From Bdellovibrionales bacterium (GTDB taxonomy: Bacteria > Patescibacteriota > Patescibacteriia > UBA9570 > XYC2-FULL-38-9), in assembly GCA_044233365.1 (NCBI GenBank), contig JBIIKE010000001.1, positions 1-37,080 of the forward strand: a DNA stretch of 37,080 nucleotides. The letters run 5' to 3'. Numbering within the stretch: position 1 is the first letter of the stretch; the number at the start of each line of letters is the position of its first letter. Both the position numbers and the translations under genes were made by a program. Below are positions 7,194 through 8,456 of the stretch, piece by piece. The notes beneath the pieces were generated by a model. That model did no database searches. It saw only the letters and a program-made list of their open reading frames with translations, and had not been told where the DNA came from.

Positions 7194-7421
7194 AGTGCGG
7201 TTTTCTGCCGTATTTATAGGGTATTATTTATTGTCATCTTTTTTATGATAACAAAATTAGACGAAAAAGTCAATGTCTGTGTATAGGTGACAGTACTTTT
7301 GGTCAATGTTTATAGGGTGATTCGTGTTTGGACACCAAATTGAACGAAAAATATGCCTTGAATTATCCTTCTATATATAGAAGGCTGACTTGATTCCATT
7401 CCGGAATCACTGGAGGTCATC

Positions 7422-8084
7422 ATGCGTTTCATGTTCGTTTACATTCTGTATGTGATCAGTGCCATCTTCTGTCCTGCTCAGGCGGCGGAGTCGACCGAAC
7501 CGCGAATCACGTTGGCAGCGCCTGAGGTGAAATTCTGGCTGAACGCCAGTGTGCCGGTCTCAAGGCCGACTGCAACTCGCGCTGTGAAGTGGCACTTCCA
7601 CGCCTTCATGCCGAACCTCGTGCAGCCGGGCGGACGCGCACCGTGGTTCTACACCGGCCCGTCCTGGCAGGTGAATGACCAGTTCAACCTCGAGCTCGTC
7701 GGGGGATTTGGCACCGGGATCGGTGATGATGCAAGCGGAGTCGCGCCTGTCGCCGGACTCTGGCTCACCTGGACGCCACCACAAGGCTGGTTCTTCTGGA
7801 GTGCGCTCGAATGGTGGGGACTCCCACACAGCGATACGCTGTTTGCAATGGGAATGCTCACAAAGCAAGTGAAACAATCACCTGTGTCACTCGGTATTGA
7901 AGCCCGAGCGACATGGACGCCCAGCGTGCCGGACAGCGCTTACGGATACGCTGGCCTGAACATCGGGTTGCGATTGAACCAGCAGTTCAGCGTGCGAGTA
8001 GCACTGCTCGCCCAAGGTGGCCCGAACAGCGAGCCATGGGGCGTTGGCCCGAACATCTTCCTGTTCTTCAACCCGCAGCCGTAA
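7422..8084 (+). CDS. Secreted Trp-rich, beta-strand-rich protein of unknown family (GC-rich island gene 1)
   Basis: GGAGG lies 4 nt upstream of the ATG. Signal-peptide-like MRFMFVYILYVISAIFCPAQA/AE. Alternating hydrophobic patterns (GLNIGLRLNQQFSVRVALLA, VSLGIEARATW) suggest a beta-barrel-like fold. The antisense ORFs are Ser/Arg-rich junk, which supports this strand. Confidence 0.6.
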   Translation: MRFMFVYILYVISAIFCPAQAAESTEPRITLAAPEVKFWLNASVPVSRPTATRAVKWHFHAFMPNLVQPGGRAPWFYTGPSWQVNDQFNLELVGGFGTGIGDDASGVAPVAGLWLTWTPPQGWFFWSALEWWGLPHSDTLFAMGMLTKQVKQSPVSLGIEARATWTPSVPDSAYGYAGLNIGLRLNQQFSVRVALLAQGGPNSEPWGVGPNIFLFFNPQP

Positions 8085-8094
8085 AGGAGCAACG

Positions 8095-8358
8095 ATGCAG
8101 AAGATCCGAAAAATCGTTGTCTGGACGCTCTGCCAAGAAGTCGGCACGCAACATCCGGCCACGAGTCCTGATGAGCAGAAGCTGAGCTTCCTGGAGCCCT
8201 TCTCCATCGCGATCATCGGTCGCAGTGTACTGGAAGAAGGATGGAGCGGTGCCCACGTGCTCGTCGGCAAGCTGCGTGAGGAATGCCGCGAGCGCTGGCC
8301 CGAACTGGTCAATCTCACGGCAGATGCCGTCGGGCCTGACGAGTTCGTCGAATTTTGA
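8095..8358 (+). CDS. Small (87 aa) hypothetical protein, apparently in an operon with 7422..8084
   Basis: AAGGAG lies 5 nt upstream of the ATG at 8095, which is 10 nt after the upstream stop. Same elevated GC. The sequence MQKIRKIVVWTLCQEVGTQH...EECRERWPELVNLTADAVGPDEFVEF has no family I recognise. The track's longer 8017 start overlaps the upstream gene. Confidence 0.5.
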   Translation: MQKIRKIVVWTLCQEVGTQHPATSPDEQKLSFLEPFSIAIIGRSVLEEGWSGAHVLVGKLREECRERWPELVNLTADAVGPDEFVEF

Positions 8359-8456
8359 TGCTCAATCAACAACAGAGGTGCTACGTTCATTCAATGACGC
8401 AGCGCCTCACTTTTCCTCATTTTGCTATTCAACCGAGATCCGCTATTCTATAAATT

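Follow-up and report, generated by a model that had tools for sequence, protein, structure and literature searches.

We describe a small gene, ORF1, located at positions 7422..8084 (+) of a 37,080-nucleotide stretch of DNA (contig JBIIKE010000001.1 of assembly GCA_044233365.1; hereafter the window). Our analysis predicted that its 220-amino-acid (aa) product was an exported transmembrane-type β-barrel, in a bacterium whose lineage fitted the candidate phyla radiation (CPR, or Patescibacteria). The gene was located between a divergent TrmB-like regulator gene and an APH kinase gene, and a second open reading frame (ORF), ORF2 (8095..8358 (+), 87 aa), followed it after a gap of 10 nucleotides (nt). 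We considered it reasonably probable that ORF1 encoded an exported small channel of about 12 strands and was a target of the TrmB-like regulator in this CPR lineage. The source genome (G000) was a metagenome-assembled genome (MAG) of 846 kb in 115 contigs and was 82% complete. The two parts of the ORF1 product were as follows.

7422..7484, plus strand: Sec-type signal peptide of ORF1, 21 aa, with cleavage after AQA, identified by eye.
7485..8084, plus strand: mature ORF1, 199 aa, predicted by AlphaFold2 (AF2) and Foldseek to be a transmembrane-type β-barrel of about 12 strands.

The signal peptide, MRFMFVYILYVISAIFCPAQA, was followed by AE at the start of the mature protein and had the n-h-c layout when read by eye. 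The AxA-type cleavage site, also assessed by eye, was kept in 10 of 10 homologues, in agreement with the initial annotation, which had placed the cleavage at AQA/AE. The Cys at position -5 was not conserved among the homologues, and there was no lipobox.

The fold of the mature protein was modelled by AF2 from six sequences, namely the window protein, three orthologues, a homologue from a contig of 72% GC, and the homologue from genome G010. The model had a predicted local distance difference test score (pLDDT) of 86.6, with three of the five models reaching at least 74, and a predicted TM-score (pTM) of 0.79. It consisted of 11 long strands and one short strand in an up-down meander. The strands were 9-13 residues long, and most of them alternated a hydrophobic and a polar face. 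All confident Foldseek matches (PDB, BFVD) were transmembrane barrels; the best size-matched ones were PcoB (7pge, TM-score 0.56/0.57), NanC (2wjr, 0.55/0.53) and KdgM (4pr7, 0.47/0.54). Charged residues made up 11.5% of the mature protein, Gly 10.6%, aromatic residues 14% and Trp 6%. Thus, the earlier description of ORF1 as a Trp-rich, β-rich protein with the pattern of a small outer-membrane barrel was backed by the AF2 model, the Foldseek matches and the alternation of faces.

ORF1 had no significant match in Pfam, NCBIfam, PHROGs, PADLOC or the PDB sequences, and profiles of its family matched no PDB sequence either. The initial annotation had recognised no family for ORF1 or ORF2, and the curated libraries that we searched contained none. 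Below the Pfam thresholds, distant members of the ORF1 family matched outer-membrane barrel families and no others, namely OMP_b-brl (full length, E 0.026), DUF2490, Phenol_MetA_deg and OmpA_like. Taken together, these results predicted a Sec-exported protein with an outer-membrane-type fold, a putatively closed barrel of antiparallel strands, in the size class of the small monomeric channels NanC and KdgM.

Orthologues of ORF1 with 55-59% identity were present in three further assemblies, another was found in the sister species G003, and all of them were intact. The ratio of nonsynonymous to synonymous substitution rates (dN/dS) was 0.27 for locus L001 vs L003 and about 0.2 for deeper pairs. 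Judged from these comparisons, ORF1 was a real gene under purifying selection. Both ORFs had the spacing and the Shine-Dalgarno (SD) sequences reported in the initial annotation, and the following features completed the unit.

7412..7416, plus strand: SD of ORF1, GGAGG, ending 5 nt ahead of the ATG, from the sequence.
8084..8089, plus strand: SD of ORF2, AAGGAG, 5 nt ahead of the ATG, from the sequence.
8095..8358, plus strand: ORF2, an orphan of 87 aa lacking a signal peptide, with a coding-like GC content at codon positions 1/2/3 of 0.66/0.41/0.69.
8375..8408, plus strand: hairpin resembling a terminator, with a T-rich tract after it that runs to about 8424, from an RNA fold of 8355-8450.

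The SD position of ORF1 was occupied by GGAGG or GGGGG also in L001, L003 and L032, and the ORF1 stop codon shared its final base with the start of the ORF2 SD. The fold of 8355-8450 had an energy of -21.3 kcal/mol (z = -2.6). A strict consensus terminator scan did not call the hairpin at 8375..8408; together with its T-rich tract, the hairpin closed the ORF1-ORF2 unit ahead of the APH gene. The flanking genes were also those named in the initial annotation, namely the TrmB-like gene on the left (5613-7193(-), PF01978, E 3.2e-10) and the APH kinase on the right (8457-9461(+), PF01636, E 2e-25).

It could be argued that the segment was a chimera of assembly or binning, or that its ORFs were chance open frames in GC-rich DNA, since the DNA was open on both strands (e.g., 7887-8390(-), 167 aa) and the genome was a fragmented MAG of the size and completeness given above. 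However, the TrmB/ORF1 junction was found again in L001, L002 and G003/L024, which were independent assemblies, and the ORF1/ORF2/APH spacing (11 nt, 99 nt) was repeated exactly in a 782-nt contig of GCA_041443065.1. Since the same junctions recurred in five independent assemblies, an assembly artefact was excluded; this check compared assemblies rather than reads. Chance ORFs also fitted poorly with the purifying selection on ORF1 and with its confidently predicted structure. The GC content of ORF2 was periodic over the codon positions, while the antisense frame was flat. We therefore gave this explanation hardly any credence.

The envelope genes of the host lineage were examined in 12 genomes of the GTDB family; the completeness of nine of them was at least 90%. 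Omp85 (PF01103), LpxC (PF03331) and OMP_b-brl (PF13505) were found in 0/12 of these genomes, and the control genomes were positive for each of them. Omp85 was also absent from the five other carrier genomes examined (0/5, controls positive). Ribosomal protein L30 (PF00327) was found in none of the 12 family genomes and in 13 of 14 controls. Relatives at 92-98% completeness had genomes of 1.1-1.6 Mb. L30 is said to be absent across CPR, an observation attributed to Brown and colleagues in 2015. Thus, the genomes of about 1 Mb together with the absence of L30, Omp85 and LpxC fitted a CPR/Patescibacteria host. The concern raised in the initial annotation, that a producer without an outer membrane would offer no obvious home to a barrel, was borne out by the absence of Omp85 and LpxC from the family genomes. 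The G003 record (L024, CAZBLE010000008.1) was titled 'uncultured Gammaproteobacteria bacterium'. It was probably a mislabelled CPR MAG, because G003 and the whole GTDB family lacked Omp85, LpxC and L30.

The second part of our proposal concerned the regulator and the 228-nt intergenic spacer (7194-7421) between it and ORF1, where the features below were found.

5613..7193, minus strand: multi-module TrmB-like regulator (PF01978), divergent from ORF1.
7211..7295, no strand assigned: conserved TrmB-proximal spacer block, almost unchanged across the window, L001, L002 and L003.
7367..7384, no strand assigned: perfect 9+9 palindrome CCTTCTATATATAGAAGG, forming the first upstream hairpin and unique in the genome.
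7392..7408, no strand assigned: inverted repeat GATTCC-N5-GGAATC, forming the second upstream hairpin, with 3 nt between it and the SD.

In the regulator, PF01978 matched residues 9-61 with 40.2 bits (cut-off 25.6). The NCBIfam equivalog cut-offs for TrmB/TrmBL1 were not reached (22.6 bits vs 650), and the protein was thus assigned as a member of the TrmB family and not as an equivalog. A barrel gene with a divergent TrmB-like neighbour was found in the window, L001, L002, G003, G010/L032, G018 and G264, which represented three GTDB families; the regulators of L001, L002, G003, G010/L032 and G018 were orthologues, and the one in G264 was a TrmB-like gene. The conserved block at 7211-7295 contained promoter-like sites on the minus strand (7273->7245 and 7251->7223) and TATAGG-type direct repeats (D1-D4). 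As separate observations, the regulator had repeated C-terminal modules and ranged from 393 to 674 aa among its orthologues (L010, L012, L013, L016 and L017), and the regulator of G010 was seemingly split into two overlapping ORFs.

A number of observations spoke against a regulated membrane channel. The Foldseek E-values for ORF1 were marginal (5.7e-4 to 0.05), and TM-scores of about 0.55 for the model indicated shared architecture, not homology. The fold was a prediction from only six sequences, and a first AF2 run with four sequences, in which the signal peptide had been kept, reached a pLDDT of 48; this run was discarded and its Foldseek matches were given no weight. Mature residues 86-128 formed strands that were hydrophobic on both faces, which was unusual for a water-filled pore. 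Among the eight family members compared, the C-terminal residue was aromatic (F) in only two (G010 and G101); the other compared members ended in L or P, and the window protein ended in ...FLFFNPQP. The family thus appeared to be without a classical β-signal, and its last strand alternated hydrophobic residues in all members. With respect to regulation, no TrmB-like gene was present within about 1.5 kb in G336, G101, G262 and G059, a promoter scan found no sigma-70-like promoter on the plus strand, and the palindromes of L001 and L002 differed even though the recognition helices of their regulators were nearly identical.

Some of these points would also suit a soluble, secreted or wall-associated β-barrel, such as a binder of hydrophobic ligands, instead of a membrane channel. 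The Trp-rich region at residues 86-128, hydrophobic on both faces, would be appropriate for a ligand pocket or a packed core, most family members lacked the C-terminal aromatic residue, and the producer had no Omp85, LpxC or known outer membrane. However, no lipocalin, fatty acid-binding protein (FABP) or avidin was among the confident Foldseek matches; sensors based on green fluorescent protein (GFP) appeared only at a probability of 0.06-0.09, against the first low-confidence model, and all matches with a probability near 1.0 were membrane barrels. A charged fraction of 11.5% was very low for a soluble exported protein. Barrels with 11-12 strands of 9-13 residues and no core helix have a lumen too wide for side chains to fill, and this general barrel geometry also told against a soluble ORF1 product. 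Consequently, we regarded a soluble barrel as unlikely and retained the membrane channel as the preferred reading.

The palindromic DNA in front of ORF1 was unlikely to be a TrmB operator because its sequence differed between loci despite the near-identical recognition helices. The 18-bp perfect palindrome noted earlier at 7367-7384 was present and unique in the genome. It had been taken to mark the left boundary of the cassette, which did not hold as a conserved feature: the sequence of CCTTCTATATATAGAAGG was not conserved in L001 or L003, where a different hairpin occupied the same place, and only the presence of a hairpin upstream of the SD was conserved. The 10-bp palindrome, ATTCCGGAAT, was also present, although one base to the right of its reported position (7398-7407 rather than 7397-7406), and was the core of GATTCC-N5-GGAATC. 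This second hairpin was kept as GATTCCA-N3-TGGAATC in L001 and L003, and its place was taken by other strong hairpins in L002, L032 and L025. Strong hairpins or palindromes, one or two per locus, lay immediately ahead of the SD in each of the six loci folded. We tentatively favoured a role for these hairpins in the RNA rather than as operators.

Several other origins of the palindromes were considered and rejected. An integron cassette was not supported, since no attC R'/R'' motifs were seen by eye and there was no integrase among the ORFs of 4500-12000. Copies of repetitive extragenic palindromic (REP) elements or of miniature inverted-repeat transposable elements (MITE) were ruled out by uniqueness in the genome. 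The 18-bp palindrome was not a terminator, as there was no T-run after it and no co-directional gene upstream; its look-alike in contig C20 was an ordinary terminator. The genome contained 13 perfect 18-bp palindromes vs about 3 expected by chance. Contig C2 of genome G000 had four copies of an 18-nt palindrome, TTGTTCCACGTGGAACAA, within 900 bp (at 3000, 3478, 3675 and 3873), and these copies accounted for much of the excess.

The distribution of the ORF1 family was narrow in the databases searched. When 1.8 billion representative proteins were searched exhaustively with HMMER, only one true relative, P0006, was obtained; another match in the same search, the 533-aa repeat protein P0007, was rejected as a low-complexity chance match. 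A broader profile matched in 7 of 401 genomes of the class, and a phylum-wide sample of 401 genomes contributed one more carrier, also of the same class. Of two metagenome scans, one was empty and the other re-found only the G010 locus, and a scan of genome contigs returned G003 alone, which was already known. The family thus appeared to be very small, fast-diverging and patchily distributed in one CPR-like class, as sampled, with one further member on a contig of 72% GC. Its distant members ranged from mildly GC-enriched (G336, 0.45 on a background of 0.36-0.38; G101, 0.48 on 0.43) to strongly GC-rich (G018, 0.66; G010, 0.62). Additionally, a GC-rich, His-rich signal-peptide protein of 282 aa in genome G000 (contig C101, 910-1758 (+)) was weakly similar to ORF1 (30% over 100 residues, E 0.007) and may be a distant paralogue.

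On the 72% GC contig, which came from SRR29352985, the gene for P0006 was accompanied by genes for an extracytoplasmic function (ECF) sigma factor, a HEAT protein, an EamA transporter and a Ser/Thr kinase. From such contig features only, our guess was that the contig was Myxococcota-like. P0006 was 71% identical to P0002. A tree that included P0006 was unresolved and did not reject monophyly of the CPR copies (approximately unbiased test, p-AU 0.69); since the tree was unresolved, no direction of transfer to or from this contig was claimed.

ORF1 and ORF2 differed strongly from their surroundings in base composition. The GC content was 59.7% for ORF1 and 58.7% for ORF2, with GC at third codon positions (GC3) of 0.70 and 0.69, vs 43.9% and a median GC3 of 0.38 for the genome, where only 10 of 590 long ORFs had a GC3 of at least 0.70. 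The flanking TrmB-like and APH genes had 44% and 47% GC. The GC-richness of the ORF pair described in the initial annotation was therefore reproduced (about 60% and 59% vs 44%). At four-fold degenerate sites, the ORF1 orthologues differed at 58-68% of positions, which was saturated and matched the 62-64% of the TrmB genes, and the GC content of these sites (GC4) was 0.60-0.71 in ORF1 vs 0.49-0.54 in TrmB. The amino-acid identity patterns of the two genes were congruent, with the window as the outlier and L001-L002 as the closest pair. With congruent patterns and equal divergence, ORF1 was therefore co-inherited with the TrmB-like regulator. The GC-richness of ORF1 was thus maintained and not left over from a recent import.

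These data also bore on the possibility that ORF1 and ORF2 were a foreign cassette recently acquired from a GC-rich donor and inserted between the TrmB and APH genes. In its favour were the GC3 of 0.70 vs the median of 0.38, the sharp borders of the island at 7400-8400, the homologue P0006 in a 72% GC contig with its 71% identity to P0002, the variable content of the slot within the genus, where G002 had an unrelated GC-rich protein, and the limitation of ORF2 to one species. On the other hand, the slot that ORF1 fills in the window was occupied by its orthologues in L001, L002 and G003 and by more distant homologues in G010 and G018. The silent sites were saturated to the same degree as in the native TrmB gene with congruent identity patterns, monophyly of the CPR copies was not rejected, and other CPR families had low-GC members (G336 and G101). 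We therefore judged a recent acquisition quite improbable, although an ancient exchange with a GC-rich lineage may have taken place. The framing of the segment as freshly inserted foreign DNA was abandoned, since orthologues were found in the same slot beside TrmB with a divergence equal to that of TrmB. A match to a common family with native homologues in sister genomes had been named beforehand as evidence against that framing; native homologues were indeed present in the sisters, but no common family was found.

The slot had a different content in G002, a sister species of the same genus. Its flanks were collinear with those of the window (purA, tRNA-Leu, TrmB, slot, APH, a 256-aa protein, DUF1697, tRNA-Leu and a 787-aa protein), and its slot (L036, G002:C1, 7144-7797 (-)) encoded an unrelated 217-aa GC-rich signal-peptide protein. 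This protein was homologous (30%, E 7e-21) to a G004 protein (L012 3743-4462 (-)) located beside a second TrmB paralogue, and the two were candidates for a second family of barrels in the same slot. Other genera also had different GC-rich secreted proteins there. A relationship of the ORF1 family to the slot proteins of G002, G007, G004 and G001 was not supported, as profile comparison gave no significant match (probability of at most 11%); a TGPxF/W motif shared between the ORF1 family and slot proteins was a hint only. A third small family was formed by the slot-A protein of G004 (L012 743-1270 (-)) and a G297 protein (L029 1273-1788 (-)) with an E-value of 3e-9, and it was weakly linked to the family of ORF1 (E 0.001-0.009).

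GC-rich genes were also observed elsewhere in genome G000, which had 46 GC-rich islands with a total of 35 kb (4.2% of the genome). The distribution of GC3 was bimodal, with values of at least 0.60 in 28 of 590 long ORFs vs the median of 0.38. Many ORFs in these islands encoded proteins with a signal peptide or lipoprotein peptide, and some proteins of GC-rich ORFs had Asp/Thr-rich linkers reminiscent of Myxococcota lipoproteins. Examples of GC-rich ORFs were C30 2494-3465, C83 791-1975, C64 5795-7897 and 12800-14860, and C101 910-1758. In the window, the purA gene (4068-5372 (-)), which adjoined a tRNA-Leu gene (5520-5602), had 68% GC and a GC3 of 0.915. The purA gene of G002 at the same place (84.6% aa identity) had a GC3 of 0.84, and because a GC-rich purA was shared with G002, it was considered an old, maintained GC-rich gene and not a recent import. 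GC-rich orphan ORFs without a Pfam match were found beside polA both in the window (13545-14216 (-), 223 aa, GC 0.56) and in G010 (L032 4675-5175 (-), 166 aa, GC 0.62).

In comparison to ORF1, the second ORF had a very limited distribution. Its only homologue came from GCA_041443065.1, where a twin of 98% identity had the same spacing. A search of 32 genomes of the order gave no homologue, and there was no match in Pfam, NCBIfam, PHROGs or PADLOC. At the position of ORF2, L001 and L003 had an unrelated 84-aa ORF and G003 had nothing. Homology between ORF2 and this 84-aa ORF was rejected (E 0.035 over 17 residues). The 84-aa ORF (L001 6507-6761 (+); L003 922-1176 (+)) had no family match, and its dN/dS of about 0.25 was indicative of purifying selection. 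ORF2 was probably co-transcribed with ORF1 and was a species-level orphan, not a conserved partner. The idea of a two-gene cassette was accordingly dropped, given that ORF2 had no homologue beyond its twin and the sisters had an unrelated ORF or nothing in its place.

From the combined data, we infer the following sequence of events. The TrmB-like protein would sense a ligand, probably a sugar, and turn the barrel gene on or off. The barrel would then be exported by Sec, cut after AQA, and enter a lipid layer that lies outside the cytoplasmic membrane, and it might serve there as a small solute channel. Candidates for this layer are a diderm partner cell's outer membrane and some uncharacterised layer in the producer's own envelope; these two were the likeliest because the producer had no Omp85/BamA and no genes for lipopolysaccharide (LPS). 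ORF2 would be a species-specific small cytoplasmic add-on, co-transcribed with ORF1 and not obligatory as a partner.

A more specific version of this proposal is that CPR cells of this class exported self-inserting porin-like barrels, which entered a diderm partner's outer membrane and formed a nutrient conduit at the contact site under the control of the TrmB switch. The partner might be a GC-rich, Myxococcota-like organism carrying P0006, and this class of genes might have been kept GC-rich, and swapped whole between relatives, because it was exchanged with the partner or tuned to it. We offer this version as a doubtful one. If true, it would represent a use of an outer-membrane-type barrel that was both independent of the β-barrel assembly machinery (BAM) and inter-cellular, and the single homologue in the 72% GC contig would be a lead to the partner organism.

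Outer-membrane-type β-barrels are thought to require an outer membrane and BAM. The CPR/Patescibacteria, which comprise a very large share of bacterial diversity, are described as lacking both. As a conserved gene that is under selection and linked to a regulator, ORF1 offers a concrete, clonable protein with which three possibilities for CPR envelopes can be tested: an unrecognised outer lipid layer, channels planted in hosts, and barrels that work without BAM. It also presents an evolutionary puzzle, as its silent sites were fully turned over and yet remained GC-rich, and the gene at this fixed slot was replaced whole between sisters. Ordinary amelioration after gene transfer does not account for this pattern.

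No paper that connects TrmB with CPR and porin-like barrels came to our notice. The locus was compared with known systems part by part. It was similar to the TrmB sugar loci of Thermococcales in that a PF01978 regulator adjoined a gene for solute passage (predicted here) and palindromic control DNA was present. However, the target there is a trehalose/maltose ABC transporter, while here the putative target was a predicted β-barrel, and the regulator here had three tandem C-terminal modules with 393-674 aa among its relatives. As for the OMP_b-brl (PF13505) clan, residues 14-200 of the G336 protein aligned to positions 4-173 of 175, but this best match scored 15.1 bits vs a cut-off of 28.7, and the window protein had none. 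PcoB (7pge), a small 12-stranded barrel, was the best size-normalised structural match (TM-score 0.56/0.57 over 205 columns). It differed from ORF1 in having 9% sequence identity, no family match and a marginal E-value of 6.5e-3, and there were no copper-resistance genes near ORF1.

The closest parallel was found in KdgM and NanC (PF06178; PDB 2wjr, 2wjq, 4pr7 and 4fqe). The mature proteins are alike in size, at about 200-215 residues (199 for ORF1, and about 210-220 for the monomeric KdgM/NanC barrels of 12 antiparallel strands), and the ORF1 barrel was likewise predicted to have about 12 strands, short turns and no plug. The kdgM and nanC genes are under the control of KdgR and NanR, repressors that respond to sugars, and ORF1 also adjoined the gene of a ligand-sensing transcription factor, although of the TrmB type and not KdgR or NanR. 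In contrast to KdgM and NanC, which BamA/Omp85 assembles into an LPS-containing outer membrane, ORF1 had no PF06178 match at E<=1 and none was seen among 11 family members when E-values up to 5 were allowed, no PDB chain was matched, the producer lacked the BAM machinery, LPS genes and a known outer membrane, the ORF1 gene was strongly GC-rich relative to its own genome, and several of its strands were hydrophobic on both faces. Thus, the structural model suggested that ORF1 would work most like the small specific porins of the KdgM/NanC type, while standing outside that family by its sequence and cellular context.

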